From the NCBI GenBank assembly GCA_010093815.1, contig ML996586.1: a stretch of DNA of 59,817 bases. The stretch is one strand, 5' to 3'. Positions 35,105-59,400 of the stretch are shown here, one piece after another; the first letter of the stretch is position 1; each line of letters begins with the position of its first letter. The notes under the pieces were generated by a model, which had not been told where the DNA came from, made no database searches, and worked only from the letters and a program-made list of their open reading frames with translations. The position numbers and the translations under genes are program-made. This DNA is from Pseudovirgaria hyperparasitica. Its lineage: Eukaryota.

Positions 35105-38100
35105 AAAAACTTCTCACACCCTAACGGACCAAACTAGTCAATTCGGGGTAAAATAGCGATTTACATATATTAAACAATAGAGTATACCAAGTATAACAAC
35201 CTCCGACATACGTGCGTACGTATAGCGTATAATACGCGACGATACTAACGTATAGAGATACTATATATATACACTCGAAGACTCTTCGATAACATGAGTA
35301 TAGACTATATCTAATAAACGCTAACACGCCGACCCCCTTTTATTAGTTAAGGGCTACCCTTAACTAATAACTATGGCGGCCTTAGGTATCGTAATACCCC
35401 GGTATACGCCGGATATACCCCCACTAGTATAGTAGAAACGGCTATATAGCGAAATTAATATAGATAGCTAGATACCTATCTAAAATATAGGAACTAACTA
35501 AGGGTGTAAAGTACTATAGATAATCTAGACTAAGGGGACCCCGAGAGGGGAGACCCTCCTAGATAAAATTAAATACTAGGTAATACGTGTAGAGAGGGAC
35601 GCCGAGGAGGGAAAGAAGACCCTCCTTTATATATTCCGGGACCTTATCCGGAACCTAAGAGGAATTATAGAGGAAGAAAGGAAGTCGCTATAAGAGGAAC
35701 CTAGTAGTAGGCTCGACTAAATAGAAGCCAGCCTACGGAGAATCTAGGAAGAGCTATCCTAAGGTAAGCGCCCTAATATATAGGCTTAGATTATAGTAAC
35801 ACCCGGAGCCACCGTACTAAGGACTACTAGGACCATAGATAGAGTATATAGTATATATATTATAATCTAGGATAAGGACACGCTGGCGTAGGTCTAATAG
35901 GCATCCCTAAAGGAAATTATAAATAAGATTAATAAATAGAAAGGAATGTGGTTAAGCGTTATAGCTATAAAAGTTATACTAGGTGGAGTAGTACTTACTA
36001 CTATAATGAATACTACGTAGTAAAACATCTCGCGAGATCCGAACGCGATAGGTAGTATCTTTCCCGGCGCGTCTATTAGAGTAGCTATATACCTAATTAT
36101 AATATATATAGTACCTGTGTAGGGATAGGCTATCGGAGCGAAGGATATTACATGTATAGAATAATCTAACGCGCGAAAATACCCAGGGATTAAGATCGCG
36201 AAAGCGTGGTAGAAGAACCTATAGGCGATTAAGACGACGGCGAAAAAATACTCTACTATAATTATAGAGCTCTAAGACCCCGCCCTCGTATAATATATTA
36301 TATAGAAGGGATTCCTAATAGAAGGAGAGCTTCTTATAGCCGAGCCATGGGATAGAGTATAGGTAATAATATAGTGCTTTAACTATTAAGGGTATAGATA
36401 TACTATATAAAGGTACTTATAGAAGACTAAGTACGGATAGTACCATAGGGACCACACTATCTAGAAGTGCCCTTATAAACCGTAAAGAGACGGACTAAGA
36501 AATAGGGATATAGTATAGTATTTAAACTACGACTAGAAATACCCGTTATGGTCGTTAACGTGTATAAAACATAAATAGATTATAGAATATATTCGTACGA
36601 TAAAAGTAAGAGGCGTAAGATAGTTATAGAATATAATACCTACTACGAGCCCTTCCTTTATAATACCTCTAACCTCCCCTCCGGAAGGTAGTTAGGCGGG
36701 ATAGTAGACTATCCCGAAGACGATAGGACAACTAAAAGGTATAATTAAAGCCGCTACCGCGTGAGGATAGTCGCGCCTCCGAGAAATAAGTATATAGGTA
36801 TATATACTCTCTAGTATCTAATAAGGGACTAGAATATACTCCGAATTATATAGGTAAACGTATAATATAAAAGAGAGAACTAGGCGACGCTCCTCGAAGA
36901 GACCGGGGCTATAATACTCGCTATCTAGGAACCCTATAAATACTACTAGACGAGTAAACCAACCATACACCCCGGATACTATACTATATACCCTCTAGGA
37001 CTAGAAAGACGAGTCCTCTTCTACATTTATAGGTTAATACTACTCTTATTATAGTCGTATACCGAGCGCGATAACCTTAGGATAATACTATACCTATAAA
37101 TAGATATAGGCCCCCTATATATATATAACATATATAACTAATAATATATACTTATACTAGACGAGATACTCGAGGGTACTATAGAACTAGGGTAACATAT
37201 CCTCCTAGAAGACTTTAACCTCTACCACTAATAGTAGGGAGGCCTAGCTATGGTTAGGGAAGAACTTAGAGTAAGGGAACTACGTACCCGCTACCACGAC
37301 TTCCTATACCTACTTACACCTATAGAATAAGTTATATAGAAAAAATATAAATAGGACGAAGACGGGTCTACGCTTAACCTTACCTTCGCTACGGAGTATA
37401 TTAGTTACCGGATCTAATACTACCGCCTAGGCTAGGTATAGACGGATTCCGACTATAAATATATAGAAACCGTAATAAACGTATATACCCCGAATAAATA
37501 ACGGGGACAATAGATATAGAAGGACACTAACTAGGAAAAGTACCTAAAGGACCTAGAATCGGCGATCCTAGATCCCTCTATAGTCGATGTATCTAACGAC
37601 CTAGCCATAGACCAGGCCGTATAGATACTCCTATAAATATACTAGAATGCGAGAAATAAACACGTACTATACCGAATATACCGGCCCCCGGAAGTAAAGG
37701 GGATTCCTTAAGTATAGGAAAGTAGATAAGACGCCCGAAGGCTATATAGACGCGTATACTATATAAGAATACCCGAGTCGTAGGAAGAATAGAAGGAAGC
37801 GATATAATAACGCGATAAAGTCCTCCGTAACGAAAGGCGTAAATAGTAGCGTATAATTACTAGTTAATAGATATAATACGTAATAGGGCTATGGCGTATA
37901 GCGAAATAGGCTAAGGGCGTAGATACTCCGACACCTCTACCACTTATACCTCCCCTAATACATTAGGGGAGAATATACTCTACGGGCCTTAAGAAAACTA
38001 AGGCCCTACGGGAGGCTATATTCCCTCTCCCGGAACTAGTAGACCTATTAGACGTTCACGGCGCCGAATATCTATACACGGTAGATATCCCTAAAGAAGT

Positions 38101-40390
38101 TATAGAGGAGAATATACTTAATATTATTAAGATACTTCTAAATAATAAAGTACCTAGACTAGATGGAATTCTAAATCAATGCCTAAAAAGCACTATAAAA
38201 GCGACTCTACCGCTTATTACTCGTATATTCTAAGTATGCGTCACGTAGGGGTACCACCCCTAGAGCTTCCGAGTCGCCTATACTATTATACTCCCGAAAC
38301 TAGGAAAGAGCCCTAACTCCCTAAAGGGATAGAGACTAATTACCCTTCTCTCCTATCTAGGTAAGATACTAGAGGCCATGATAGCGAAGAAGATAAGTAC
38401 CGCGGTATAGGAATATAATCTCCTCCCTCTAAACCAGAAGGTAAAGATAGATAGCTCCCTAATAATAGCTATCTAATATATTATCGAAGTCGTCTAGGCC
38501 GTATAGAAATAGGGACGGGTAGTATCGCTCCTCTCCCTCGATATAGCCGGAGCGTTTAATAAGGTAAACTATATAAGACTTATTTATAACCTCTAGATGA
38601 GACGAATACTAGAATAGATTATACGCTTTATATAGTTATTTCTTATAGGAAGAATAACTTAGATATATATCTCTAGGTACTAGAGCGAATATAAAGAGAC
38701 GGTATACGGCATCCTATAAGGGAGCACCATCTCTCCGATTCTATTCCTCTTCTTTACGGTAGACCTTCTTTAAGGAATAAAGTATATAGAGGTAGTCGGA
38801 TACGCCGATAATATATACCTCCTAGCTATTAATAATAATACTAACCGAACGTGTAGACGACTAGAATAGAACTATAAGAGGTGCCTCTAGTAGGTAAAAC
38901 GCTATAGAGTAAAGTTCGCCCCGGAGAAATACCAGCTCATACACTTTATTAATTATTAAGGGAAATAGGTAACTAGGGAAGGCGAACGACGCCCCTAAAT
39001 CGACGTATTTAATAAACTACTAGTATAAAGCATGCGCACGCTCGGAGTTATACTAGATAGCAAGCTTAAATAGGGACTATAAGTGGTATACACCGTCTCT
39101 AGGGCCCTCTAGGTAGAAGCCGCTATATAATAGATTATAGCCTCCACATAGGGAACCGCCTAGGATAAGGCACGCTAGCTATATATATCTATAGTACGAC
39201 CCGCCTTCATGTACGGACACGAGTACTAGTATACGGCCCTTATATAGACTAGGCGAATGAAGCTCGAATCCATATAGAATCGTATACTCCGTCTTATATT
39301 AGGCGTATATAAAGCTACTAACACGGTACTACTACGACGCGAGATAGACGTTATAAGTATATATAACTTCTACTAGATATAGAGGGTAGTATACTTTACT
39401 AAATAATAAGCATAGGAATGTATAGAAAACGTAGAATATACTTTCGCCGCGCTACGCGTATAAATCAGCATATATTACCGTGTACTCCTATATATAGGCC
39501 GGAATCGAATATAGTATAGGTGCTTAATAGAAGCCGACTCTAGCTAAGTAGTATAAGAAGTCCGAGATAACCCGGACGCTCTTCTAGACTAGTAGAGCCT
39601 TTAAGAACTCGTGAAAAACATACGGTCGTGGACTTAAGATAAGTAGAAAGAGGTACTCCGTGCCCACTAGACCTTCTAGTAGAATAGGTACCTAGAGTAG
39701 ATTCGAGGGCTATAGAAGGAACCGAGTAAATAGATATATAAAGGCCTAACGAAAGCCTAAGTATCTATACTTATCTAAGCCCGAACGGGCGCCATAGGAC
39801 TCCTATACTATATCTATAAGAGAGGCGTTCCTAATACCTCCCTATAGTATAAGACGTGCGGCCGGAGAGGTATAATACACTACTATCTAGCTATATACCC
39901 TAACCTCTATATATAACGGTAATAGCTTATCTATATCACGAAGACTTTAGATATTATATAATAGCTTAATAAGTACTCTAAGGACGTCTCCTAATAGATA
40001 CTTATATATCTACTACTTCTCTAGTACTAGTAGACCCGGAAATATATACCGGAAGAGACCTAGTATACGCCGGTAGTAACCCGATATATACCGGAAGAAC
40101 CCTAGGAGAACCCCGATTATTAGTTAAGGGCAGCCCTTAACTAATAACCTCCGTATCTACACGTGCTACCTAAGGGTAAAATAATGGTAATATAGGCTAT
40201 AGGCTAATAGGCGTACTCTATAGCTATATACTTAAGATAAAATAGAGGTTTAACGAGATATAGTTATAGATATAAGGAAGTTTTTCTCTATAGGGTTTCT
40301 TCTTATATAGTGGCTTAGACTAGAGGAGGCATAGGCCTATAGAGTACTACTCTACCTAGTTATACAATATTATTATTATTATTATTATTA
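35105..40390 (+). mobile_element. Tad1-like LINE (RIP-degraded, near full length): ORF1 ~35500-36790, ORF2 ~36830-40100, (TAT)n tail
   Basis: Three CCHC knuckles (QCFNCQGYGH.., CGQC.GDH..C, CLNC..HP.W...C); APE motifs ILAIQEP, GDFNLHH, SDH; RT motifs KAPG.DG, WRPIALL, LSLDIAGAFD, GIPQGS.ISPILF, GYADD, FAPEK; tandem tail 40368-40390. Confidence 0.9.
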
Positions 40391-42968
40391 TAGTTTTATT
40401 CTATAGGCTCTCGAATACCCTTTTAGTAGTATTATTATCAACGTAGTCGGGTAACTTATCTAGAGTATCTACCTCGATAGCCGCTAGAATATCTACTAGA
40501 CTATTCGAGAGGGGCGTTACACTAACCCATATACTAAATATAAGGGTATTATATATCGTATATTTATACTATTTTATATCGGGGTTCTTTATAGAATAGA
40601 ACTCGTCTACTATTAATATACCGAGGAATGCTACTTCGCGAGTTTAAGTGTTTTTAGTACCGAATTATTTCGCCCTCTTTACTCTTATAACTATATATCC
40701 CTTAAAAGATTTAAGATATTAGGGTTCCATACTCTAGACGGTACTATAGATTATATAGTTCTTTGCGTATCGCGACGGAAATTCGGTAGTAGCGGTCCTA
40801 TTAATGGGAATTAACTATACCCTAATAATACACTCCTCGTCGGTCTTGAATTTAGTAGTATTACTAATATCGACGCTATATTCCCATTCGGGGTATAGGC
40901 ATCTCTTAGCTAAGTATTATCGGTCTATATATGAGAATTATCGGATACTAGGGGCGTCGGTAAGGGTTTTCGAGTACGCTAGCCGTACTATTATCTTTAT
41001 CGGGTTCCGTTTATTAATTTAATCGGTGAACATGCTATCCGTATTATTATATATCTATTTAAAGCGCTACGGCTAATATACTATTAGAAGGGAACTTAGG
41101 TAGCATAGTATAAATGGTCCTTAAAGGCGGGGTATATAGACGAAATTATCGGTCTAGCTACACGGACATTTAATCGGATATAGAGATTATATCGGGCACT
41201 TCCTATCCATGCCCGAGTCTTAAGTCGGTTATAGGTAATTTCCTAGATTAAGTTCTATATTATCGCGTAGAAAGTCCTAATAAAACGCGAGGCGGATGAA
41301 CGTTATAAGCACGATTATCTTCCCTAGCCCTAGGCTATCTACTAAGATCTAGTACTTCTACGGACCCGCCTACTACTTAAATATAGTAACTACCGCGAGT
41401 AACTAGCCGGCCCATGGCCTATATAACCTACTTATACTAAAGGCTAGATATAGAGTAGGTATATAGCCGAACTTCTTTATTAGGTTATCTAGTATAAGTC
41501 TAAATATACTTATAGTAAGTAACCATATCTCTTCCGTATAATAAGAGATAGCTTAGACTACTTTATTAGAGTTATTAACGGCGAATATTCTATAGGTATA
41601 TTAGTATAGTAGTATATATTCCTACTTACTTCTTAGTATAACTTACGCTTTCTATAGTTTTATACTAACATCGTTATCTACCGGAATTAAGTCCTCTATA
41701 TCTAGCTTTACTTTATCTCTATTAGAGTTATTATCTATAGAAAGAATTTTAAAGTTAAGGCCGTTCGCTAATATACTATCTAATATATATCTACTATATA
41801 AATTATCTACTAACCCGAATAGTTCCTAGTTTTTACGTGTCTACCGGTCGACATCTAGTAGTATAATATATTCTAGTTTTGGGCGTTTTAGAGAATCGAC
41901 TAGGTTTACTATATTATCCGAGAGTATCCTCTTTATTTCTAGTAGCCGTAGATAAGTCTCGCTAGTATCTAGAGGCACGACGGCATTCGTGGGGGAATTA
42001 TCTATATTAGTAATTATAGGCGCATCTATCTTCGATACTACTCTAATATTAGTATCTAGGACTATATATATATATATATATCTAAGTATACTAGCTGCGT
42101 CGTCTTCTATTTTAGTATCTTCTACGTTCTCTTTCTCCGTATGTTCCGACGGTAACTATAACTATATCTCTATGGCTAGTATATTTACGCGTAGATAAGC
42201 CTCGCTAGGCATAACGACATTCATAGATGGATTATCTATATCGGTGGTTATAGCCGCACCTATCTTCGATACTACTCTAATATTAGTATCTAGGACCATG
42301 TATATATATATGTATCTAAGTATACTAGCTACGTCGTCTTCTATTTTAGTATCTTCCACGTTCTCTTTCTCTATATATTCTAGCGGTAACTATAACTATA
42401 TCTCTATGGCTAGTATATTTACGCGTAGATAAGCTTCGCTAGGCACGACGATATTTATAGGTAGATTATCTATGTCGGTAGTTATAGCCGTATCTATCTT
42501 CGACACTACTCTAATGTTAGTATCTAGGACTATATATATATATATATATCTAAGTATACTAGCTACGTCGTCTTCCATTTTAGTATCTTCTATATTATCT
42601 TTCTCCTTATGTTCTAGCGGTAACTATATCTACGTACCTATACCTATAGTATCTATATCTAGTTTAGCCTCTATTATATCTATAGTTATAACCGTTGGTA
42701 CTAACTTACTATTTATAGCCGCGATATGCTAATTAAATTCTCTAGTAACGGTTTCCTTAACTATTCTATAGAGTGTAGTAGTATCTATACCACTAGTTTT
42801 AAGCTCTATTACTACTTCTTTACTTACTATCTTAATAACAGTAGCCCTATATATATCATGACTTATTTCGGGTATTAGATATAGGCCTTAGAGGTACTAG
42901 ATATAAGGTAGAAGGGCGCTAACGCTTAAGGCCTCCGCACGTCATATATACGTGTTACGGTTAGCCAT
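40391..42968 (-). pseudogene. RIP-inactivated SNF2-family ATPase with N-terminal 78-aa repeats; C-terminal lobe missing (cut at LINE tail)
   Basis: One frame from ATG 42968: ILADSPGLGKT (motif I, 41317-41348), GPFILCCPSSLL (Ia, ~41120), ILIVDEFH..KN (II, ~40607), SATPLSNS (III, ~40520). Motifs I, Ia and II are a multiple of 3 from the ATG. Confidence 0.8.
41948..42630. repeat. Tandem repeat, 234-bp unit, ~2.9 copies (coding, 78 aa)
   Basis: Units start at 41973, 42207 and 42441. Confidence 0.9.
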
Positions 42969-43220
42969 TCTATAGCCGGTAGTTAAACTAGGATAGTCGT
43001 GACTCTTATTATACCTATCTATTCCTATATATAACTTAGGCCATAGGTAGTAAGACGGCGTTAATGGCAATAAGATATGAAAACTAGATTTAGGCGGTAG
43101 GAGTTAAGTCGCTGCGTTTAGCGATTATAACGTAATTTCGATAAGTGCGGAGGAAGTAAAGTATATAAGTAAATATTTAATTATTAGAGTAGATCTTATA
43201 CGATTATAGTCGTAGTAATA

Positions 43221-43410
43221 ATATAGCTAGTAGGACCGGGCGTATCCCGACGTGAACTAGGTAGACGCCGGCTTATACTAGTATCGTAACGTCTTAACCA
43301 AATATATACGCTATAGTTATATAGCTAGTAGAATCGGGTATATACCGATATATAGTAGGTAGAAGCCGTCTTACGTCGGATCGTATCGCCTTAGCCAAGT
43401 ATATACGCCA
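43221..43410. repeat. Imperfect direct repeat, 98-bp period, 2 copies
   Basis: atatagctagtag...tatatacgc at 43221 and 43319. Confidence 0.7.
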
Positions 43411-43629
43411 CTCTCACTACCTCTAGCACCCTTTTTATTATTCTATTAGTCTTTAAAAGCGATATCCATATTCTCTATATCTAAGGTGCTTTTAAGGCTT
43501 TTAAAGTTACTATCTTTAGAGCTTATAGGTCGGTCTTACGACTTCCCGGGTGCCGATAGTAGTATATATAGTATTACTAGAGGAAGGGTTAAGTCGTTTA
43601 GGTGATACTATCCACTACCTATAATACTA

Positions 43630-44640
43630 TCTCTATAGGTATCTCTACCGTCATAGACGGTAGCTTTCTATTACTATTATTATACTAATTATAGCGAGTA
43701 TGGCATTAGGGATAGAGGGGCGGATTTATTCGAGCGTAACCTATATATAGCCGTCTATACTATTATATATTAGTCGCTGGTTTATATTTTATTTTACTTC
43801 GGGTATACTATCTATATCCTATCTAAGGCCGAGGAGTATTATACTATTACTATATTCTAGGACACATTCGATTACTAACTATAGGAGCCATCTAATATCT
43901 ACCTCTAGTTCCGTTTTACTTATTATATACTTAACTACTAGCACGATAGAATATATAGTAGTATAGCTCTAGTTAAGTGCCCTCCTAGTCTTCGTTGCGT
44001 ATTAGACCCTAATTTACTATATAAATACTACCGAATTAATACACGAAGCGTCGCTGTGGTCTTTCTACTAGTTAGACGTAGGTACTAGTATTTCGAGGAA
44101 TGTATTATCGTCGAACCTAATTATAAATTTGATTTTTCTCGTAGTATATACGTTAGTAGGCTGTGGGACTACTACGAGTATAGGCTATAAGGTCGTGGTA
44201 TACGAGAGCTATAAGGTCGTGATAGACAGGGGTTATAAGGTTATAGAATATAGGGCTATAATTACGCGCCTCTTCTTATACTCGGAGATAGTTTTTCTAT
44301 AATATACGGTTTTCTATACTATAGTGCGTACCTAGTCGTAGATATAGTATAGCGCCTTTATCTCTATGTACTCTACTACTCTTTCCTATACTACTAGAAA
44401 TTCGCCCGCTACCTTATTAATAATCTTACGTACTCTTTTTACGCCGAGCTCGTTCTTAGTTCGACGCCCATAGTCTACGAGTAGAGTAGCCGTATATACT
44501 TCTATGTATAGCTGCCTTATACACGCCTCCATAGCTTCACGCTTTACTTATATATCTAGGCTTAAGATGCGAAGTAGTACTATGGTAATTACTATATTCG
44601 GATAGTTACTTTATTATAGAATCGGATTCGATATGTTAAT
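43630..44640 (-). pseudogene. RIP-inactivated ORF of unknown function (~330 codons) with internal 24-bp repeats
   Basis: Protein-like frame (EAMEACIRQL...KVAGEF...) with only RIP-type stops; boundaries approximate. Confidence 0.4.
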
Positions 44641-45648
44641 CGTATATAGTTAACATGTGTAGTTAATATAGTATTTATAATTTACGGACTAATTATATAG
44701 TATATATATAGTATATCGTAGGCGTAAGGAAGACGGAGGTATAGGTCGGACGATAGAGGTAGAAGCCGGAATAACGAGGTACCTACTAGGTGAACCTCGT
44801 TTATATCCTTATTATTCCTCGAACATACGTTTATAACACGTACGTAACTTAGCGTGGCGTGGTCGGGCGTATAGTTATTTACTTCATGTTGTCTAATACC
44901 CTTAATAGAATTAGATAGCCATGATTCTTATCTCGCAATATTATATCGTAGGCGACTACGTCTAGAACGGCATATGGCCACGTATATATAAGGTACCGCG
45001 TTAGTCTTATCCCATTTTATATTTATATACTTATCCCTAGGTACTCTCCGAGTATCGTAAGCCTATATTTTATTATATTCGAGTATCGTATCCTTCCATG
45101 CTTTTAAAGTACGCGATATTTAGGTTTACTATATCCTATATATATCATAGTTAAAGTCTAAAGGTGGAGGCTTTAATTAGGGCGTATGTTTTTTTATATT
45201 TTCTCTTTAGATAGTAATATCTCCTAATATAAAGGCTAGAAGTAGTTTTAAAAGTATAAAGGGGATAACTAAAGGAAGCCTACGTTATTAGGCCGGGGCT
45301 CACGGTAGATATAGAATCGTGTTTATTTCTTAATTAGTGGGTACTAGTTAACGTGCCTAGTAGCGCCGTATTATCTAATAGCGCGTCCATACTAGAGTAG
45401 ACGTAATAGAAATACCCTTAATAGGTCTTTAATAGAGCTAAACTATCTACCTAGTAGGATATCGTAACTATATCTAAAATAGATATAGAGGTGTACTTAC
45501 TAAGAAGCCGTGACTAAGTAGCCCTAACACGTGAGTCTAATCGTATACTATTACTAATTAACTTCTATATCTTTATATATCGTAACACCGCCGTCTCGGT
45601 CGGTATCCTCGTAGTCTCTATCGTCCTAGCCGCTAGTAGTTACTTCAT

Positions 45649-45734
45649 TAGTAGTATTAGCTCTAGTAGTATTAGTTCTAGTAGTATTAGTTCTAGTAGT
45701 ATTAGCTCTAGTAGTATTAGCTCTAGTAGTATTA
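45649..45734. repeat. 15-bp tandem repeat (~5.7 copies) in helicase C-terminal tail
   Basis: (tagtagtattagctc)n. Confidence 0.85.
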
Positions 45735-48700
45735 ACTAGATTATTACTATTTATACGTGCTAGTAATTTAGTACGGCTAGAATAATAACGCCGAGTATAA
45801 CCGGTAGTCCTATAATTATAGTAAAACGTACCTATAAGCGTCTTAGGTTTAGAGTAAATATTAGCTTTATAGCCGATGTTCTAATAGTTATTATATATAA
45901 GCGTCGACCCTCTTAGACACTTAATAGACTTATATCCTTTAACATTATATTTACGGTAGACTAGCGGCTTACGGGGCTTAGTACTATTAGTAGTTTATTA
46001 ATCGCTTCGTTCTCCCCTCTCTCTAATACTAAGTATAGGGCGACCATATTAGAGATTAGGCATATTAGAGAGTAGAGGGAGGCCATCTAGGTCGGGGGTC
46101 GTGCACGTGTATATCGCATGAATCTTAGAGTACTTATTCTATATCTCGCCGAGTACGCCGTCTAGGACTTTCTACCTCTTAAGAGATACGAAGTTAGTAA
46201 TAATAACTATTATCTATTTAGCGCGCGTAATAGTAACGATGTTACGGTTTACTTCCGAGAGGAAGCCGAAGCGATTAGTTTAGACCGGGTCGATAAGGAC
46301 TATATCATTATTATGACCCTAAGAACCGTCCTATGAACGCCATTAGATAAGCTTCTATACCGGCTTAGGTAGGGCATTAAATCGAGCTTTATCCGCTACG
46401 GTAAGTATAGTTAGAAGCGAGTTCCTAACCATCCCTTTAAATAGATCACGTTAGGCGGCGTATATAGAAATATAGAGCACGTAATTAAGTGCGACGCCAT
46501 GACGGAAGAGCTCGGTAATAATCCACTAAGTGAAACGCAATAAGTCTATATTATATATTAAGTTATTTACCGTGTACGCGTGATCCTAGTTAACGTTAGC
46601 GTATATAACGTGTTAATAGCCGTAGATTCTAAATATTTATCGAACGGTCTCTACGAGTAGTATATCGATATTATTTATTATGCGGGGTGAGGTTATTAGC
46701 TCGCCCGAGTAAGTAATTAGCGATATAATATTTATTATTCTAGAAACTAAGCGTTCTAACTCGGTAAGGCGAGTGGTCGGGAAACTATATTATATCTAGC
46801 GCTTCATGAAGGAGATCCTCTAGTTCACGGCCTATATATTAGTACTATCACGCTAGTAGGTGTCGAGCTAGCGTAGGTCGCCGACGTAAATAAATGTCGG
46901 TTACCATTCTATAGTAGTGTAATTAACGATAATCCCGAGTATATTACTTTTAAGAATACACGTAGCCTCTTCTATTACAACTAAAATCGGATATATATTA
47001 CGGGCTACCTTGGCGATATTTATAATATATAGGGTCTCTATATAAATCTAGGCGTAGATAGTAACTAGGTCCTAGGTAGCGAGGTATAGCTCGTTCATCC
47101 TATTATACTCCTCCTTAGGCATGTCCTTATTACGAGTATAACATTTATAGATAGCGTATAATAGCTAAGCCGTTTCTTTCTCGAAATTCTTAGGAATCCA
47201 TTTATATTAGTATCGAGATTTAATAAGTCCGACGACCTCAAGCGTAATATAACCGGTATATAGTTTCTATAGACGAGCACGGGGATCCGTGCTATATTCT
47301 AATAGTCGTTTACTATAGTCGGCCTAGGCTTACGCGAGGATAGTACCGCCTATTATATTATTCTAGGTTGGCCCGATAAGAGGGTCGCCGCGACGAGATA
47401 GTCTAGCTATAGTAAAGAAAACCTCTTAATTAACGGCTTCGGGGTATCTTCGAAGAACGACCGGTATCTTTAGAGACTTATAGCGAGTAAATATATTACT
47501 TATATATTTATATGCTTTTCTTATAGCGTCGTCGTAGGTTTCGTTAGTTAGACCGATAATAACATATATATATATTCTATATATTTAGGTGGAACCTAGC
47601 GTAGGGAGGTGCGCTGTCACATCGCTAGATGGGATGACTACCTTAGTAGTATAAGCGATAATAGGAGTACCGTTTATTTCGTTAATTAGAAGTATAGCTA
47701 GTAGTAGATAAAGCTATAAATGGCTCTTCCTAGCTCCTCTATAGCCGTAAAGTAGAAACTAAGCCCTAAGTACGTCCGTCGCCTATATATAGACATACTA
47801 TTATTAGGGAGATAGTTCCGAACGTATAATATCCTAGAGATCATAGAATCTTTTATAATCTTTAACGTAGCGGTTATAGTTAACGGGTTAAAGATTTAGG
47901 TAGTTATTACTAAGTATTAGATCCTATACGGAGGGTAGTAAAGGGGATAGAATACTAGAGTAGACTTTAGATAATATTAGGAGTGTGTATATATCGACGA
48001 CGGGGCTAGTAATAGAACCTTCGTCGCTAATAATATCGTAACTATATTCTATATTCGTGTCCTTATTATTATCTAGGGATATAGATAATTTAGAAAGAGT
48101 AATGAGGGTATCCTAAGGCTCTATACTATAATCTAGAATCTCGTTATTAGGGTTAGGGGACCTATATATTAGAGATATAGACACCGAGTCCATGATAACA
48201 TTAAGGACTATCGTATTAAACGCATCCTAAGCGGCGTGGTCGTCTACGCCGCCGTCTCTAGGAGCTTACACGGTATAGTAGGTTAGTTTCTAGCACGTAT
48301 TAATACGTTACTTAGTAAGCTTATCGTAGGTTTATACGCTAACTAAAGCCGGAACGTCCGTAAACCCTATAAGCGTGGTAAGGGACGACCCGATTATACT
48401 TAAACTAGTATTACTAGTCCGAATAAAATATTTAGGACGAGCTCGAGTTATATTAGTAACCGTATCTATTAATATAATCGGTACCTTAGATACTTTAGAA
48501 GGACGCCTAACCTTATTAAAGACTTTTAGAGCGAGGTATTTAAATAGAAGGACGCCTAGGCGAAATCGAAGGACTTTAAAGTGGTACGCGTCGTCATTAT
48601 AATCCTTTAAATCCACTTTAAGGTACCCACGACTACCTAGTTCTATATAATGGAATCCTTTCGCATCGATAGGACAGACGATAGCTAAGAGCGCCCGAGT

Positions 48701-49722
48701 AACACCTAAGAGCTAGATATACCCGATAGTAACGTCTTAGAATTAGGATAATAGAAGATCCGCCTATTCGTCTTATAAGATACTTATAGCGATATATATT
48801 AGGTAGTTAAATTTCTTATTAAATGACTCGCGGTAGGGAATAGAGATCTAGGGCCAAGTGTCCGGCCTACTTATTATACCGTATTATATATAGGGAGTAG
48901 TAACTTCTATATACCATGAATTAATTAGATCGCTCTCTAGTTTAAGCTTATTATTAAAGCCGGTAAGATCTATAGGGTTATGTAGCGGTAGCAAGATATA
49001 AACTATAGTATAAGCATCTAGATCTTCGAAGAATTACTTTACTCGTTCGTATATTATATTAGGTCCGACATACGACGGGATAGTAAAACCTATACTAAGA
49101 AGCTCGCTAGCTATAAGTTTAATAATCTAAAAGTCGCAAGGGTCTTCGTAGAGGCCGGTGTTAATATATAGTATATTAGCTTTATCCGCTTCGCTTATAA
49201 TAAGATTAGGAAGTTTAGAAAAATACTCGATAAAGTCATCTACTTACTTAACCTTAAAGATCTATACCATAGAGTAGTCGGACGATAGAAGGATGTTAGT
49301 ACGATTAAAGCGGAGTAAGCTTATTAAGGATACTAATTTCCCTTTATTAATCTATTGGAAGTAAGTATATAACTTAATCTAAGAGCGGTACTTAGAGAAT
49401 TCAAGGAATCTATATATATAACTAATTAACTCTTCGAAGCCGTGACCTTTACTATAAGCCTTAAATACTACTAGCTTAAGCTCGGCTTGAGTTTTCGCTT
49501 ATTCCTACTTAAGTCTATCTATTTCTCTACTAATACCATAGACATTCCTAAAGGTTAACTATAGATCGCCCTATATAAGAGAGATCTAATAGATGGCGTA
49601 AGTAGAAACGGGAGCCTTACTACTTTAGACCTTCTTAAGTTTATACTCGTTATTAGAACGGTAGTTACCGGTAAGTATACTAAAGACGAGTGGTTTATTA
49701 TCGGTCGAGACGGTAGTCGTAT

Positions 49723-50058
49723 CGTAAGCTTCGACTTAAGTATAAGGCTCGGCTTAAATATAAGGCTCGGCTTAAACGTAAGGCTCGGCTTAAATATAAG
49801 GATCGGCTTAAACGTAAGGATTAGCTTAAACGTAAGGCTCGACTTAAACGTGAGGATCGGCTTAAACGTAAGGCTCGGCTTAAATATAAGGATTGGCTTA
49901 AGCGTAAGGCTCGGCTTAAACGTAAGGATCGGCTTAAGCGTAAGGCTTAACTTAAACGTAAGGCTCGGCTTAAACGTAAGGCTCGACTTAAGTATAAGGC
50001 TCGACTTAAACGTAAGGCTTAACTTAAACATGAGACTCGGCTTGAACGTAAGGCTCAA
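49723..50058. repeat. 18-bp tandem repeat (~18 copies) encoding (E/D)PHVQ(A/V) at helicase N-terminus
   Basis: (ggcttaaacgtaaggctc)n on +; in the helicase frame, de-RIPed, GAG CCT CAC GTT CAA GCC. Confidence 0.9.
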
Positions 50059-50339
50059 TTACGTCGAGCGTAGACTAGTTCTAAATATCGCCGAATATAA
50101 CGAGTTCTTAATCCATATTATAAACTATAAATATAACCTCGTTAACTATTATATAGAATAGACCTTAAGAGTTAATAGAGTCGAGTTCGACGTAGCGTTT
50201 ATATATAGTTATAATTAACACGGAATAAAGTACAGAAGATAAGATTTAGGTTTAAAAACCAAGATAAGTAGAGGAAAGGTTTATAGAAGTTTTCTTTTAT
50301 AACATAGGGATAACTAAAGGAAGCTAAGATTAACGTAGG

Positions 50340-51200
50340 CTAAAGTAATAGTAGCCTAAGTAGTGTATAAAGTGGGGTAGTATACTACTATTATATGAGT
50401 CTAGTAGCTCGCCGACCGAGTATATAGTACGTTATAGAAGGCTATCGAATTAGGGCTTAGATAAATATAGGTATAAATGGATAGTATTATATGAAAGTTT
50501 AACCGTCCGATATACTAACGCCATAGACGCCGAGTCTATCTTCTAAATTCTACGGTAACTATCTCTTCTAGATAGTAAGATATTACTAGCCATGCCTTAC
50601 CTATTCTATTCATAGTAGAGACACTATATGTCCGTTAGTATACTAGCGCACGTATCTAACTACCGCTTAAATATAACTTGCCTTATACTATAATACGTAC
50701 TATTACGCTAATATTATACTAATATTCATGGGTTCGTGTCTATAAACTCCTCTCCCGTAATATTAAAACCGGTAACATTATCTAGCGATAGGACTATATA
50801 AGAAGGAGGCGGACTTAGTATGTCTAGTTATATATAGACTTCTACTATCGCCTTAATAACCACTACGCCGGTAGGCGCTTCCTCCCCGGCCCTAAATGGT
50901 ATATAATATTAGACTTTTATACGTTCGCTCGAACTCTCGAGTGTACCGGTATTATATATTAATTCGTAAGGCGATTAGGTTATAATCGCTAGCATATTAA
51001 TATTAACGGGTAGAGTAGGCGGGACGGTAGCGCTCGACTCTCCTAATATAACGTTAGCTAGCTAATAATATAATGGGTAAATATACTAGTCGCGTCGTTA
51101 TTAACATCTATCGTTTAAGTAGGTAAAGCGTTAACTACGCCTATATTAAGTGGACTAGGGCGTACCTATATACTATTAATAAAAGACCTAAATCTAGTAA
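50340..51200 (-). pseudogene. RIP-inactivated small gene of unknown function, probable intron ~51044-51087
   Basis: Protein-like frame (PFRAGEEAPTG...LSLDNVTGF) and an intron-like gtatat..gctaac..tag; boundaries approximate. Confidence 0.3.
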
Positions 51201-51482
51201 GGTATCCGCCGTATATATAATACTATACGTAACTAATAACCGAAAACCTAAGATATATAAATAGTATTATATCCACGGAAGAGCGACGGTATTATACCGG
51301 TATATACTAGATATACCGGCATACATCGGTATACACTACTTAGTAGTCGTAATATATTGATATATGCCGATATCTATCGGCGTATATATATCTTAAGCTT
51401 ACCTACGCGCGCTAGACGGATAAATCCCGCTACTATACTCATAGCGCGACGTTCCTATATAGTTAGATTATAGTTAACACGT

Positions 51483-52335
51483 TATAGTAGGCTTCTAAAT
51501 ATACCGTTTATATCGCCTACGCGGAAAACCACCCAATCTAGTCCTAAGCCTAGTGCCTATTTAATAGCCTACTATAATACCTAGTCTAAACTATCCTTAC
51601 GAAGGATTATATTACTCGACTTACTCGGTAGAATCGGGTACTCTAGGTAGACGCGACCATGCCTATAACCGTCTACGTCCCCTAGTATATCTATAGACGA
51701 GCTAATAAATTCTAATAGTTTATTTATACTAAGACCTACTATATCGCGTATTTTTATAGCCTTAATATTTAACGGCGTTATACTATTCTATATAGCCGTT
51801 ATTAGTACTAGGGTAACCCGAGTACGATCGCGGATAAGGACTATAGATATACGTATATAACACGGCGGCACGGCTACCTTAGAAGATGTAGATACTAGTA
51901 GTCCGACGGTCGAATAACTAGGTTAGCTAGATATATTAGGCGGGTTCGTAGGGTATATATAATATTATAATAGCTTATCTAGCCCGGGGCATCGTTTTAA
52001 CATATATAATGGTATTTAGCTAACCGCCGCTAGTTACGCGTAAATACTAAGAATATAGTATTAAGTTAATATATAGCATCTACCCGTGAAATAGTATAAC
52101 TACCGTTAATAAATATACATTTATCCGCGACCGTCTATAGGCAACGCTCTCGTTTTATATGGTGGTCCTTTACTTCCTTACTACGTAGGTTTAGTAATAG
52201 GCTAGTAAATTCCTCCTAAATTAACTCTTCCATGTGTACCCGAAGTTTCTACCTGTTAGACGCTCTAAATATATAAAGTAGGTCGAGACTCGCTTCTACT
52301 CGGCTATTTATTCGCGGCTAGCCGGACGTAGCTAT
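51483..52335 (-). pseudogene. RIP-inactivated small gene of unknown function
   Basis: Protein-like frames (KLRVHMEELI.EEF...RERCL.TVADKC; GRVYLEYP...LDWVVFRVGD) that need one intron to join. Confidence 0.35.
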
Positions 52336-53315
52336 AGATAGACGGAATAGAGAATAGTATATATTACTAGGGTGATGGAGAGACGAGATATATATACTAT
52401 ATAATAGGTATAGATATAACACGTACGTTACGGCTACATTAACGCGAGTAGTCTATATAGTTATCGGTAATAACTCGTTAATTTAATAGAGGCGGGGAAA
52501 CATACGGCCGGCATCCGATCCCGCACTAATATAGGGCACGTGAAATAACGACGTTAAATATATAATACTCTATACACAACGTTAAGTTTACCGGGCGATA
52601 GCCCTACTCCGGTAATACCGTCTATATACGATAAAAGAGTAGTATAGTATATAGGTATAATAGGATAGTAGGCCGTCTTTACGACTACATGGATCTACCG
52701 CTAAAGAGAAATACTATAAGATCTAGTATATACTATTATAAACATACTATTATCTATTATATTTAGGCATGCTAACTCGGCGTACGCGAAATATAGATAA
52801 CCGCTAACCCGTCGTGGTTCGCTATTATTCGAAGCCTAACGAGTAGAACCGAGGAATAAATAGTAGAAATAGTTAGATATAAGAGTTTTTAGCGATTAGG
52901 GGATGGTCTAGGTAGCTCGAGGGAAGGATAGAGGACCTCCGCAAAGCATGTGCTTATGTAATATTAATATGCGAATATTTAAGAGAAGTATGTAATGCTA
53001 ACTATTATCTCTATAATAGGTCGTTATCGATTAGTACTATTATTAAGAAGAGATAGACGAGCGTAATGATAAATAATCGTAGTAGCGAACCCTTATATTA
53101 AACACGAATAATACAACGCATTAGTATGGTATATTTATCTATTATAAGAACGTACATCTAGTTACCGTAGTTTCTAACGGTCTATATAAGAACGTATATA
53201 TTAATAATATAGTAATATAAGTCTAACTATACTTATAAGGCCAGGGAAAGAATAAAGGAAGAGGAGGAGAAACATTAGGAGGAGGAGATACTTAAGGAAG
53301 ACGTTTCCCTAGTAA

Positions 53316-53449
53316 GAGCGTTATATACCCGGTATATACTTATTTATACTTATTTACATAGACTCGTTATATACCCGGCACTTATTCATTAATAGACTCG
53401 TTACGTACCTAATACTTACTTAACCATAGACTCGTTATATGCCCGGCAT
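53316..53449. repeat. 34-bp tandem repeat, 3-4 copies
   Basis: gactcgttatatacccggcacttattcattaata-like units. Confidence 0.75.
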
Positions 53450-53894
53450 CTAACGAGATATAAACGCGAATAATAAAAACATTAGAATCGGGTACGAGCT
53501 AGGTCTAGTAGGCCTAGAGATATAGTTCGGATTTTAGGGTATTAATATATATAATCTATCTATATTAGGTTAAGACTATCCGTATCTAGTTCTACCCGTG
53601 AACGAGGATCCTTTAAGTTCTATATGCCCCTTTTAGAGGCGTGGAGTTTTTATACTAGCTAGTAATTATTAGATAATAAGGAGGTGCATCCCTAGATACT
53701 CCTTAGCTAAAATTATAGATAGTTATTAAATATAAGCCTTTTATAGAACTAATCGTAATAAACCACGATTATTCCTTAGAGATATCCTAGTATAGGATAT
53801 AACTATCGAGTGCTACTATGTATAAACCATAACTTCCGGTATATACTAGTATATACCGGCATACTACGGTAGACGGCGGTAGATAGTGATAGAC

Positions 53895-56800
53895 TTACGA
53901 CACGCGCCCGTGTTTTAACACTACGGTTACGTTTCGTCTATTTATAGCCTAGAAGTCTAGATTATATACCTCGTTATAGATCCCCTAATTACTATACGTG
54001 TTTAACTAGAATAAACTATCTATAACTAACTAATATAATATAATCTATATAGGGCGTAGGACATGCTCTAGCTCGTAGACACGGAACCTATCCATTATAC
54101 GAGTCTTATTACTAGACCTTTAACCCGCTATACGTAATAGTATAAGGCTACTAATAGTATTAACATTACCTCTACCTAAGTTATTAAGTAGTTTAACTAA
54201 CGCATCTAGGAATCGCGCCGCTATACTACTAGTTATATTAATACTCTCTATATTATATACCTCTAGAAACATACGGACTTTACTAACCCGCTTCCCATTA
54301 AGGTGGTTACTACCCTTATTAAACTCCTATACTATTATATAATCCTCCCTAGCCTTACTACTCTTTTACTAGTTACGGGCATACCTTACCCGAATTAGAT
54401 TAAAGGCCTCTATAGATATATCTCTATCTAGTTATATCGGTACGTATATAGTCTTATATATATAGATAGGAAGGACCCGTGCCTACGAAGGGTCCTTTTT
54501 AATACGTTCGATATTCGTACCTTTTAATATATTATCCCCGATAAGCCGATTACGATAGTTACGTATAAAGGGTATAACCGTATTAAGTAATATAAAACTA
54601 CTACTATACACGTTATAGAGGTCGCCGACGGTAGTCTAGTAGGACGTAGATAGTCCATGGCTCTATAAGACGTAGAGTGTATATTCACTCCGGCGTGGCT
54701 CCTTTAGAATACACCGCTAGCCGACTAGCTTACGTGTATTATCGAGCTACTCTAGGCTAGGGGCTACTAATATACTAGTACTAGCCGCCACCTCTATACT
54801 ACTAGAGATTTTAGTATTTATCGTACGTATATCTACTACTAGTATCTACTATAGAAACGTCTCCCTCTTATTTAAACCTTAATATAATTCCTTTACTACG
54901 ATATAAGATCGCTCTAGTAGCTCTACTAATATTAGATATAACGAACTATGGTATTTAATAGCATTAACTAGGTACGATAATGCATGGAACTTCGGAAAGT
55001 TAAAATGATTATCCTCCGATTTATCTCTATAATATAGTATAAACTAGTATTTCAGGTCGTCTAAGCGTAATATAGCCTCTTCTAAGTATACTAGTGTCTA
55101 CGTATTATGCGTATAGTACGCCGCTAACATATATATATTAATAACCGCCCGTACTACGCTTAGGAAGTATTAATTATAACATAGGAGCGGTTTAAAGGCG
55201 ACTATAAACACTACTAGTATACGCTTAAATATCGCCCCCGTCTATTATATTACTAAAGTTATACACGTGAGTGGGTTATAACGACCGAATGCCCTAATAG
55301 ACGCGAATCGCTTATCGATCACCTTCTTTACTCGTTCTATAGGGGGTATACCGGTAAATATACCCTTTAACTTATATCCTATACACTCTTAATTAATAAC
55401 ATACGAGACTATCCAATTAAACGTATGTTCTAATATACCCTTATATAGTTAATATAGAATATCCGGAGCGACCGCGCGGTATATATTAACTCTAGTAAGT
55501 AACTAGGCAAAATTATCTAATGGCTCTATCCATCTACTAGAATACCGACTCTTAACCGATTAGCGAATATAATAGCCCTATGCTACTAGCGCGAAAGACG
55601 TTAACGAAAACGATAAGATACTAGGTATACTCGTCCTATTATCTATCTTACTACTAGTATACTCGCTACTGTAGCTATTAGTTATTAACTCGCGACGTAC
55701 ACGGTAAACCTATTTCTATAATAACGAGTGTATACGGAACTCCTATATACTAGTAATAGCTTCTCGTAGATACTATCGTCTGTTACTAGGGACTATATAT
55801 ATTAGACATGTATACTAATGGGATACACCCGTGATAAGCACCTACTCCGGAAAATCTATAATATATAAAGCTAAACGCGGATAGTACTTACGCAAGCCGC
55901 CATCGGCATATAATACTAATACTCTAGTACTCTATATAGCCTATAACACTATATAATAATTAGTATAGTTAACGACTCTATCATGGGCGGATATACGGGC
56001 TAGAACTTTACTTATAACCTAATAGAATATAAAGCGATTCGCTACCGTTTCTAGCTTAACTACTAGTAATAGAGTAAGTAGTAGAAATAATAGTAGACTC
56101 CTAGATAAGCGGACGTTTAGTGGCAGATTATAAATAGATAGGTAGACTAGCTATACTACTCTATTACTACTATGGTTAGTAAGGTTTATCTTATCCGAAG
56201 ATAAAATAATAGGGATAATAACGGTACTATCCGGAATAGTAGCGTGTATATCCTACTAACCATCTACTATATAGACTTTACTATATACCCGGTCGCCTAA
56301 ACTAGTAAATTATCGTACTAGCTTAAACACGAGCTTACTAGTAAACGGTCGGTATCTAAGGAGGAATTCCACTAACGTAAGCGGATCTCTATACTAGTAT
56401 TTAACTATAGTAGTACTAAATATATTATAGCTACGCTACTAACTTTTATACGGTATCCCTTTAGGGTAGTATAATAACTACTTACGTACGATATTAGATT
56501 TTAGTATAAAAAGGTCGGGGGGTATAGCGGAAGTCTATTTAAGGATAGTAGTTAATTCATCGTATACTATATTCGAAATACCGAACCGATTCATCTATAT
56601 TATAAGGCGCTCTATAAACTTACTATTGAATTAACCGAATCGGGCCTACTAAATTAGTTACTACTATAAACCTAGACTATATACACTCACGTCGGACGGA
56701 TTATCACGTCTACTCTAGTCCACTATAATATATATACCACTCTCCTCTTCGAACGTTTTTATTAAATATATAGTACTAGACGCCCTCGTCGCCATGGATA

Positions 56801-57750
56801 TAGCATTTCTACTATATATATTAGACTAATATACTAAATCGGCACCATGGCTACTAGTAACGCCGTCTATAGATTCCAGGTCTAAAATAGAATTAGAGAA
56901 AATAGTAGTATCTTTACATAGGGTAATATTAGTAGTAGAAGTACCCAATTCTATAGGCTCGGACTCCTAATTAACGCTTGACGGCTAAACACTAATAGAG
57001 CGAACTAAAGAGTTCTATCGACTAATATAACTACGAGTACTAAAGCCGCGCCGTAACCCGGTCGATGGTAGTAGCCACGGGCCTAATGGTTATAATAATA
57101 ATAGCGATACGGCAAGCCGTGCTCGTCTATACGGTTCCAAGTTATAGTACCTACAGATTATATAGTATATACTACTAATCTTTCTACTATAGTATTAGTA
57201 AGAGACTACGGCCCGTAGCATCTCGAGGTATAGTTACTATAAAGGAAAAATACCATAGTATAATTATTAGTAGATAGTAATGATATAGTATACGGTGGAT
57301 ATTCTAGGCGTATACTAGAAGAAGTTAGGTGTAAGCCCGTCGAAAGCCCGATATATATCTACTAACCCCCGACTTCTACCTAGCTCTTAGCCCCTTAATT
57401 TCTATACACGCTTACTTAAAATTATTAATAATAACGCGTAAGCATCACGCGTCTATAAAAACACTATATTAGTCTACGCCTAAACCTTTATCGTGTCTAC
57501 TAGCTAGTTATTATCCCGCTATCTAATATTATTACCTAGTAGGTTACCGACCCATTACTAATGAAAATATCTACTAATCTCTTATATATCTTCTCTATAG
57601 GACCTCTAATACAGAAGACGGTTAAGGGACTATCTAGCTACCGTGGCGGTAACACTAATAGAAGATAATCTAGTAACTATAGTAAACTAAACGGGATAGG
57701 TAAACGAAGATGCGATATAACGTAGACACGTGTTAGCATTAATAATAGGG
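53895..57750 (-). pseudogene. RIP-inactivated Plavaka-family transposase (core 53895-56650; start uncertain, 56790-57750)
   Basis: In one frame: IIPIILSSDKTNLTNHSG (~56170-56219), CADGGLRKCYPRLALYIADFPEQVLIT...CP.C.VP (~55790-55915), VAPDILHQLYKG (~55440-55470), HFNFPKFHALSH...IKYHGS...E..ERSH (~54900-55010), WLNTYSDW.IYNEVY (~53965-54010). Confidence 0.85.
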
Positions 57751-58150
57751 ACTTATATAATAGCTATCGACATAAAAAACGTATATATATACACCTAGCT
57801 TATCTCGACGCGTTCGTTTATCTACTAATAACCTAGTAGTCTAGGTATACCGGCAGCGAATATGGTAGTAACGCCCTATATAGCTTAGACGTCACGGTAA
57901 CATCCTACCGTAATAGTAACCGGGGATACAACGGCCTTACGTCCTCTCCTCCACTATATTAGCTATCTAGCTTAATAGAAGAAGGTAGAGAAATAGTAGT
58001 AGAGAGGGAACCAACTATCCGTGAAAAGAGGCGGTCCTATAGAGATAGTCTCTAGCCTTACGAACGAGACTAGTACCTTACGATAATAGAGATTTTAATT
58101 ACTATAACGTTTTTAGGCCGGTTACTACCGGTATTTAATCGCCTTAATAT

Positions 58151-59400
58151 ATGGCTAGATAGTAGCCTAGATAGTTTTAGGATACTAGTATAATCGGCCT
58201 AGACAGCCGCCGGAGATATTAATCTTAGTAGCTACTATCTTAATTATAATTTATAAAACACACCTCCCGCCTATATTATTACGCTAGTAAAGGAAGATAT
58301 AATAGACTTCCGTTACTAACTCCTCTCTAGAGTTAGATAGATAGTATCCGAATACTAGGACTAGGAGATAGCCGAGAAGAGAAAAGCTAGTATAAGTAAC
58401 CTAATACGTAATAACGCGTATATAGGAGTAAAGGTATATTACTTACGTCGTATTAGACGTGTTACTAATTATTAGTATAATACTAGCGTAACTCGGAAAA
58501 TGTTTATAGGGCTAGTAGTAATTAAGGCTCTAAAGTTAGTTCTACTATAGTCCCTAAGATTTCTTAGATTAAAGGAGCACTATAGTAGTATATTCCGACC
58601 GATCCCACCATCCACGATTACCATTATATATATTATAATAAGGCATGCCCTTAACGAATATAGTAGCGGGCGGGCGCCGAACTCGTCCTTCGGTCGCTAT
58701 AGATTCGCACGCTCTCTACTAATACTAGGTATATATATATACCTTTATCTAATTGCGTGCTAAATTATATAGAGGAATAGCGAGCGCTAAGCCTAACATA
58801 GTCGAACTAGGCGCCCTACCGCATCAACTACATTTAAAAATCGCTAATAGTATTAGTATTTATAGTACTAACACTAATTAACCCGGATACTATATATATA
58901 AACCCATATAAAGATAACCTAGATAACTTCTCTAAAGTAGATGTAGATAACTTAGACGAGAGTGAGGAGTCTAAGCTATCGGGTAATATAAGTATATACT
59001 AAAGTTATAGAGGCTATATAGATACTAACTACTACGAAAAGAATAAGTCGGATACTCTAAACCAGTTGGATAAGTACCTCGAATTATCTCATGCGCCATT
59101 AGATATAGGTAAGAGTTCTATACCACTAGTAGTGGCTACGGATAAGATTATACCATCTCGGGTATTAAGTATAGACCCACTCTAAGTAACCGCGGAAATA
59201 GTAAATGATAGTATATATACGTATAGTATAAATAAGTCTATTACTAACTTATTATCCCTAGTTATAGCTACCTTAACTAGTAGTCTATCTACCCCGACCG
59301 ATACTTAAATTAAAATGAAGTTAGATGGTGGCGGACGTTTAAGTCGGGTCTTTAACCTATATATAAAGAGTATATACTTTTAAGAGAAGTCGGATATTAG
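58151..59400 (+). pseudogene. RIP-inactivated DUF6532-like gene with introns, divergent from the transposase
   Basis: De-RIPed F.GPAVIKALK.VLL.SP..LG..E.Y..MFRPIPPSTIAIVC.VVRHALDEYSSG (58504-58670) resembles the DUF6532 consensus from memory; intron-like segments ~58434-58475 and ~58729-58772; ends approximate. Confidence 0.45.

Follow-up and report, generated by a model that had tools for sequence, protein, structure and literature searches.

A dead Upf1-like helicase gene, probably a passenger of a giant Plavaka transposon destroyed by repeat-induced point mutation

Large Plavaka and KDZ DNA transposons carry genes that act on epigenetic marks. A 59,817-nucleotide (nt) stretch of contig ML996586.1 from Pseudovirgaria hyperparasitica (assembly GCA_010093815.1), the whole of which is called the window below, probably holds a passenger of another class: a full-length Upf1-like superfamily 1 (SF1) helicase gene, now dead, that was a passenger or accessory gene of a giant cut-and-paste transposon of the Plavaka kind, which repeat-induced point mutation (RIP) later destroyed. 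It may be a previously undescribed kind of transposon passenger gene. The repeat unit would span at least 19 kb, from roughly 40.7 kb to past the end of the window, with the helicase in its interior alongside a same-strand Plavaka DDE transposase and a DUF6532 gene. Both the helicase and the transposase would lie within one pair of transposon ends, and the unit would have multiplied in the genome as near-identical copies before RIP destroyed them. The features at the heart of this explanation are as follows.

45551..50116, minus strand: RIP-inactivated Upf1-like SF1 helicase pseudogene of 1522 codons, with an ATG start and 91 in-frame stops.
46187..47764, minus strand: helicase core with both RecA-like halves and motifs I-VI (residues ~785-1310), from alignment, phmmer coverage and predicted local distance difference test (pLDDT) values of 70-90.
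46193..46807, minus strand: Pfam AAA_12 (PF13087) match, including motifs V and VI (residues 1104-1308).
54000..57100, minus strand: RIP-inactivated Plavaka (EnSpm/CACTA-related) DDE transposase pseudogene, with approximate limits taken from stop density.

An earlier note, made from the letters of the window, had claimed a helicase gene at 45551..50116, and this is confirmed: 50116..45551 forms a single frame of 1522 codons on the minus strand, beginning with ATG, and the plus strand of the same interval has no long frame. The frame is broken by 47 TAA and 44 TAG codons but no TGA, and these 91 stops make the gene a pseudogene. Only three CAA, no CAG and six TGG codons are left in it. Together with RIP indices of 1.66 (TpA/ApT) and 0.23 ((CpA+TpG)/(ApC+GpT)), this restriction of the stops to TAA and TAG is characteristic of repeat-induced point mutation acting on CpA. 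RIP, turning CpA to TpA, converted nearly every Gln codon of the frame to TAA or TAG, and some Trp codons were probably turned into the same stops. No frameshift was found across the core as aligned with intact relatives, so the gene was probably whole when RIP struck. No intact copy of it was seen in the data examined. For all protein-level comparisons the frame was read through with X at each stop (protein P0001).

Despite the RIP damage, the read-through protein matches AAA_12 with an E-value of 6.9e-10 (39.2 bits against a cut-off of 27) over 188 of the 195 profile positions, and no other Pfam family was found in it. AAA_11 (PF13086) gave no match at E up to 1 in the same scan, but the AAA_11 half of the core, motifs I to III, is still covered by phmmer matches and by the alignment with AAA_11-bearing relatives. 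A phmmer search with residues 131-1330 against 1.84 billion representative proteins returned 28 matches, all over the helicase core, with a best E-value of 1.9e-10 and identities of 21-41% (21-27% among the ten best). Every one of the 28 carries AAA_12, and 25 also score on AAA_11. Combined into a profile with its ten best relatives, the query matched solved structures in the order UPF1 (2.3e-72), yeast NAM7 (1e-68), ZNFX1 (1.6e-60), Sen1 (1e-52), Ighmbp2, senataxin, Aquarius and Dna2. An AlphaFold model of residues 131-1330, built with 25 relatives as its alignment, predicts a two-RecA fold for the core at pLDDT 70-90, with Dna2, Upf1, Aquarius, ZNFX1, senataxin and Ighmbp2, all Upf1-like helicases, as the top Foldseek matches; since the model used the relatives as its alignment, the fold is not independent evidence of family. 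Judged by its sequence, the helicase is a Upf1-like superfamily 1B enzyme of the AAA_11/AAA_12, or DNA2/NAM7, type.

The Upf1/NAM7-like label of the earlier note thus stands at the level of the family, borne out by the above-cut-off AAA_12 match, by all 28 relatives, by the profile and by the Foldseek matches of the predicted core, but it does not extend to Upf1 itself. The N-terminal CH zinc-knuckle domain of Upf1 gave no Pfam match at E up to 1 in a protein whose RIP damage lowers sensitivity, and its absence from the scan argues that the gene is not Upf1. No zinc-finger family appeared in the Pfam scan either; neither the NFX1 zinc fingers of ZNFX1 nor the Dna2 nuclease domain was detected. 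What the protein shares with Upf1/NAM7, ZNFX1, Sen1/senataxin, Ighmbp2 and Dna2 is the order of the helicase motifs, AAA_12 and the predicted two-RecA fold. It differs from them in an N-terminal region held in common, weakly, with uncharacterised relatives only, in the EE of motif II, and in being a pseudogene. One of the intact relatives, P0003, has as its Atlas neighbours uncharacterised AAA_11/AAA_12 clusters of 60-80 members, the named ones mainly from Ascomycota. The group to which the helicase belongs is poorly known. Other searches returned little. A word-based homologue search gave no match for residues 131-780 or for the core (780-1400), and when started from P0003 it found only P0003 itself and three distant kinase- or nuclease-fused proteins. 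The whole read-through protein gave no phmmer match among solved structures at E 0.01. In metagenome scans, a pattern from P0003 matched 160 stretches, none encoding a relative, and a transition-tolerant 36-nt pattern from the helicase matched nothing.

The family assignment also bears on whether the gene came from a Helitron-type rolling-circle element, a transposon class that encodes an SF1 helicase with a long N-terminal region. The layout invites the comparison, as a large protein with about 700 residues ahead of the SF1 P-loop resembles RepHel. Helitron helicases, however, are Pif1-type. The Pfam scan gives AAA_12 only, with neither a Helitron or Pif1 family nor a Rep domain; the relatives are of the AAA_12 type throughout; and the nearest solved proteins are UPF1, ZNFX1, Sen1 and Dna2, with Pif1 absent among those listed. 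A Helitron origin is scarcely credible. In the accessible text of Kojima 2025 (PMC12730594), Helitron helicases are described with a HUH nuclease.

The earlier note had read SF1 motifs I, Ia, II, III, V and VI in order, and column-wise alignment with intact relatives bears this out, placing all six in the frame of the ATG. Two of them need their codons spelled out.

47723..47746, minus strand: motif I, GYRGARKS (residues 791-798), encoded GGC TAT AGA GGA GCT AGG AAG AGC.
46964..46972, minus strand: motif II, EEA, encoded GAA GAG GCT, in the context VVIEEATC.

In its present form motif I departs from the Walker A pattern GxxGxGK[ST], which is satisfied only in the pre-RIP reading because the sixth residue is encoded by AGG, one G>A change away from Gly; both Arg codons of the motif are one such change from Gly. 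Motif Ia reads TNETYDD, motif III VGDLR*L, motif V DGS*GHNND and motif VI VTITRAK. Motifs III and V are each interrupted by a TAG, one C>T change from CAG (Gln). Motif II was correctly reported as EEA instead of DEA, its two acidic residues being encoded GAA GAG. RIP did not produce the EE, since no transition, whether C>T or G>A, turns GAT or GAC into GAA. Among 25 aligned intact relatives, three have EE at this position and three have DD. Taken together, these observations make EE a natural variant of the group, neither a defect nor an oddity. The Cys codon that follows in the context, TGT, is one C>T change from CGT; restoring CGT gives VVVEEATR, as in relative P0017.

Ahead of the core, the earlier note had seen an unassigned region of ~700 residues before the P-loop. 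Most of it remains so, with no Pfam family and no match in phmmer or the word-based protein search, but ~87 residues weakly match the same helicase family.

48770..49030, minus strand: N-terminal stretch (residues 363-449) recognised by a profile built solely on what precedes the P-loop in 16 intact relatives.

This stretch was the sole match of the profile in six read-through frames of 24001-59817, at an E-value of 4e-05 and 11.1 bits, and an hhalign comparison over 415 columns, with a probability of 66%, was centred on it. It is also the only N-terminal part of the model with pLDDT above 60. In the N-terminal 570 residues of the model pLDDT is below 50 except at about 280-320 (~40 residues), and no fold can be assigned. 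The match, weak as it is, suggests that the N-terminal region is probably an extension native to the helicase group, not something added in the transposon.

About 4 kb upstream of the helicase, and in the same orientation, is the transposase. Its Plavaka domain (PF18759) is matched at 55779-56414, minus strand, with an E-value of 4.6e-27 and 95.5 bits against a cut-off of 26.3, within a frame low in stops from ~57100 to ~54000. The link between the two genes rests on their joint repetition. Contigs from two DNA sequencing runs of one sample (X1 and X2) were mapped on 40000-59817 at a likeness of at least 80%, and 18488 (X1) and 9392 (X2) contigs matched. Summed contig depth per bin is even over 40661-59817 (29 bins, 19 kb) in both runs, ranging in X1 from 13.9k to 27.5k. 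Its mean, calculated by hand and not to be equated with copy number, is 23.6k over the helicase against 21.1k over the transposase in X1, and 10.4k against 9.6k in X2, giving ratios of 1.12 and 1.08. The first bin, with the retroelement end (40000-40660), reaches 246k in X1, about tenfold the Plavaka block. Helicase, spacer and transposase are repeated together, and since equally repeated DNA lies on both flanks, the helicase sits inside the repeat unit.

The differences among the copies are almost all of a single type. In X1 the changes were 397 C>T, 392 G>A, 251 A>G and 187 T>C, against 17 transversions of all kinds together, with one single-base indel listed. Copies that differ by almost nothing but transitions were almost identical before RIP, and the near absence of transversions and indels points to a burst of near-identical copies that RIP later destroyed. 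Eight X1 contigs listed singly have depths of ~200-340, which may correspond to several dozen copies. A 10105-nt joint between 47074 and 57180 was set aside, being seen in one contig with 22 letters on its shorter side.

Such repetition leaves little room for the idea that RIP leaked from adjacent repeats into a host helicase gene, whether single-copy or recently duplicated. Thousands of contigs at 80-99% likeness cover the helicase as deeply as the transposase, and RIP is saturating over all 4.6 kb of the gene, as the three CAA and missing CAG codons attest. A host origin is very improbable, even if the closest intact relatives carry the plain annotation of hypothetical proteins, P0003 being one sequence on two contigs with named Atlas neighbour clusters mainly from Ascomycota. 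If the helicase was a working anti-silencing accessory gene, these uncharacterised relatives could in part be transposon genes annotated as host genes.

A second alternative is that the helicase is part of a separate repeat that only adjoins a Plavaka copy or is nested with it; such a repeat could be another transposon or an amplified family of host genes. In a further form of it, the whole block of ~19 kb was spread by segmental or tandem duplication instead of transposition. The appeal of this alternative comes from the DNA around the two genes.

50117..53999, no strand: 3.9-kb spacer from transposase to helicase, with no Pfam match on either strand.
40661..45550, no strand: left part of the equally repeated block, 4.9 kb, with no Pfam match on either strand.

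Neither piece holds a recognisable gene, no transposon ends were found around the block, and the AT-rich half of the window is a mosaic of dead elements, such as the RIP-mutated non-long-terminal-repeat (non-LTR) reverse transcriptase at 38321-38962 and the repeats at 25.9-33 kb. Within the spacer, moreover, clusters of palindromic motifs of the TATACCGG(T/C)ATA type lie near 51290-51380, 53320-53460 and 53830-53870. They could be binding sites or subterminal repeats, and those at 51.3 and 53.3-53.9 kb could in particular be the subterminal repeats of an element that ends between the two genes. Against all this stands the depth profile: it is even across 29 bins and 19 kb in both runs next to the tenfold rise at the retroelement end, and two unrelated families are seldom so alike. 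RIP indices and GC content are likewise similar over helicase, spacer and transposase, and the two genes, both full length, share a strand and were killed by RIP alone. We regard separate repeats or a duplicated block as possible but rather unlikely.

Several points nevertheless weigh against the passenger explanation. One is that no terminal inverted repeats and no target-site duplications were found around the block. A transition-tolerant (purine/pyrimidine) inverted-repeat search gave no pair flanking it, and searches with degenerate versions of the known Plavaka termini yielded 0 and 1 matches, no more than chance. RIP blurs short terminal motifs, and the right end of the element probably lies beyond base 59817, outside the window. 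The joint repetition has limits of its own, beyond the fact that summed depth does not count copies: the runs are not independent, coming from one sample and one study that is perhaps the source of the window itself, and no contig bridges helicase and transposase, since the contigs are only 140-250 nt long. None of the 28 relatives carries a transposase domain or any other informative domain. The relatives are distant, with phmmer identities of 21-41% falling to 15-21% when aligned to residues 131-1330, and the query core alone reaches ZNFX1 at E 0.002 over 62 residues and NAM7 at only 0.08; because profile and model rest mostly on the relatives and not on the query, they confirm the family but not the subfamily. 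As for the frame, stop density alone is not decisive (91 stops here, 104 and 201 in the alternative frames), and homology fixes it only at residues ~363-449, where the match is of the weak kind described above, and ~785-1310. That the helicase is transposon-borne, as the earlier note had it, is accordingly likely but unproven: the same-strand Plavaka pseudogene, the equal depth and the differences made up almost only of transitions speak for it, and the missing inverted repeats and target-site duplications do not.

Set beside known Plavaka elements, both fungal PlavakaB and the red-algal giants, the block is familiar in outline. It has a Plavaka-type DDE transposase in a large unit (here at least 19 kb), extra full-length genes beside the transposase, internal tandem repeats and many degenerate copies. 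Published consensus sequences of Plavaka, which are from Agaricomycotina, measure about 6.6 to about 25 kb, and some (PlavakaB) carry a TET/JBP gene; their families have TGT..ACA or CATCA..TGATG termini and duplications of 2-3 bp, going by the accessible text (Kojima 2025, PMC12730594). Giant red-algal elements, as described in the available part of a preprint, measure 17-19 kb and bear three accessory genes (PAG1-3), none of them a helicase (bioRxiv 10.1101/2025.02.11.637652). The differences are equally clear. The extra gene here is a Upf1-like SF1 helicase in place of a TET/JBP dioxygenase, a methylase-SET or a ParB-oxygenase; ends and target-site duplications were not found; and the host looks like a RIP-active ascomycete, whereas the published fungal elements are from Agaricomycotina.

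Precedent for the helicase was sought in the literature. The accessible full texts yielded no case of an SF1 helicase in a Plavaka or KDZ element, although a published mention could have been missed. The word helicase occurs only for Helitrons in the accessible text of Kojima 2025 (PMC12730594) and is absent from the supplement as available. In the accessible part of the red-algal preprint, TET/JBP is the sole associated accessory gene found for basidiomycete Plavaka (bioRxiv 10.1101/2025.02.11.637652). The available text of Muszewska 2017 (PMC5751038) names "helicase" among accessory domains used for filtering DNA transposons and does not tie it to Plavaka. Should the helicase have been a working anti-silencing accessory gene of an ascomycete Plavaka, this would be the first cut-and-paste transposon of the EnSpm/Plavaka clade with a helicase and would add a new anti-silencing cargo to the TET/JBP, methylase-SET and oxygenase genes. 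An RNA surveillance or silencing-class helicase would then constitute a second, RNA-level cargo type of Plavaka/KDZ transposons, and a giant Plavaka family would be placed in a RIP-active ascomycete. As matters stand, it is a well-documented dead gene in a dead repeat, of value as a lead to intact helicase-Plavaka pairs in other fungi.

As to function, the earlier note had suggested that the helicase may help transposition or counter RNA silencing. The living protein would have been an ATP-driven 5'-3' RNA/DNA translocase. It would have served the element. By analogy with the TET/JBP, methylase and oxygenase passengers of other Plavaka/KDZ elements, which probably act on epigenetic silencing, its likeliest targets would be transcripts of the element itself or the RNA-based silencing of the host, though this is a guess. 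A captured gene of no use to the element is about as likely as one that served it. Three fungal proteins, SAD-3, Hrr1 and RnhA, we take to be in the same broad helicase class as this one. In the accessible part of one paper, SAD-3 (Neurospora), Hrr1 (S. pombe) and RnhA (Mucor) are putative RNA helicases in fungal RNA silencing (PMC5384783), which makes a silencing link for the present helicase conceivable. The query alone does not resolve the subfamily. The full proposal, an ascomycete Plavaka whose working Upf1-like accessory helicase would shield element transcripts from host RNA-based silencing or interfere with it, is unlikely.

Both ends of the helicase frame are repetitive, as had been noted.

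49743..50056, minus strand: 18-nt tandem array of 17.4 units (Tandem Repeats Finder) at the 5' end of the helicase frame.
45649..45734, minus strand: 15-nt tandem array of 5.7 units (Tandem Repeats Finder), reading NTTRA, at the 3' end of the helicase frame.

The second of these accounts for the reported 5-amino-acid repeat. The first, whose looser registers extend over 49671-50120, translates in the helicase frame as EP(Y/H)V(*/Q)A, and units that keep CAC (His) and CAA (Gln) support the EPHVQA of the earlier note. The ~18 repeats claimed there correspond to 17.4 units in the DNA. The same array also yields, in its +1 frame, a 158-amino-acid open reading frame of SLTFKP repeats (50031..49555, minus strand), the only one of 80 amino acids or more listed in 44-52 kb. 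It is open simply because the +1 frame of the 18-nt unit has no stop. With this open alternative, and with the ATG itself a target of RIP, both the start codon and the translation of the array remain unproven.

Beyond the transposase, a further domain lies towards the right end of the window.

58263..58691, plus strand: DUF6532 (PF20149) match, E 4.7e-07 (30.3 bits against a cut-off of 24), divergent from the transposase.

It may mark a second passenger gene carried by the repeat unit. In two Ganoderma species DUF6532 is found among their additional domains, together with Plavaka and KDZ, in the available part of the source (PMC8955403). Elsewhere around the helicase the Pfam read-through scans were silent: nothing on the minus strand at 50117-54618, nothing but DUF6532 on the plus strand at 50401-59817, and nothing on either strand at ~40.2-45.5 kb. 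A 234-nt tandem repeat of 2.7 units (89% matches) lies at 41997-42632, inside the left flank of the helicase. Tandem arrays adjoin accessory genes in red-algal Plavaka elements as well, according to the accessible preprint text (bioRxiv 10.1101/2025.02.11.637652). A boundary at 41728, suggested by loose ends, was rejected, the same sequence being present in a less mutated copy.

The window as a whole falls into two parts. Positions 1-24000, with GC content near 0.5-0.6, hold ordinary eukaryotic genes, and 24000-59817 has a GC content of 0.24-0.39; the composition switches at about 24.0-24.6 kb. Per block, RIP indices over 24-59.8 kb are 1.60-1.71 (TpA/ApT) and 0.20-0.25 ((CpA+TpG)/(ApC+GpT)), against 0.65 and 1.22 in the gene-rich 1-24 kb. 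Intact, GC-normal host genes in 1-24436 adjoin the RIP block and encode a dynamin-like GTPase, a peroxidase, TAF9, an SNF2-RING (Rad5/Rad16-like) helicase and a Kelch protein. The Atlas neighbours of the SNF2 gene are from Ascomycota, and these neighbours together with RIP would fit a RIP-active ascomycete host.

The AT-rich part holds remains of other elements, one of them with a recognisable coding domain.

38321-38962, plus strand: RIP-mutated non-LTR-type reverse transcriptase (RVT_1; E 1.6e-15, motif YADN), in an element of about 35.3-40.15 kb.

Two direct copies of a 41-nt unit, at 35331-35371 and 40108-40148 and 4777 nt apart, bracket this element. The core of the unit is a near-perfect 31-nt palindrome (TTATTAGTTAAGGGC.GCCCTTAACTAATAA), and at 40117 other copies have loose ends that match what precedes the 41-nt copy at 35340. 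Farther left, in the most AT-rich block (GC 0.24-0.32), lie two pairs of 300-nt direct repeats (25971-26603 and 31787-33025), 87-90% identical and about 5.8-6.4 kb apart, which may be the ends of another dead element, perhaps one with long terminal repeats.

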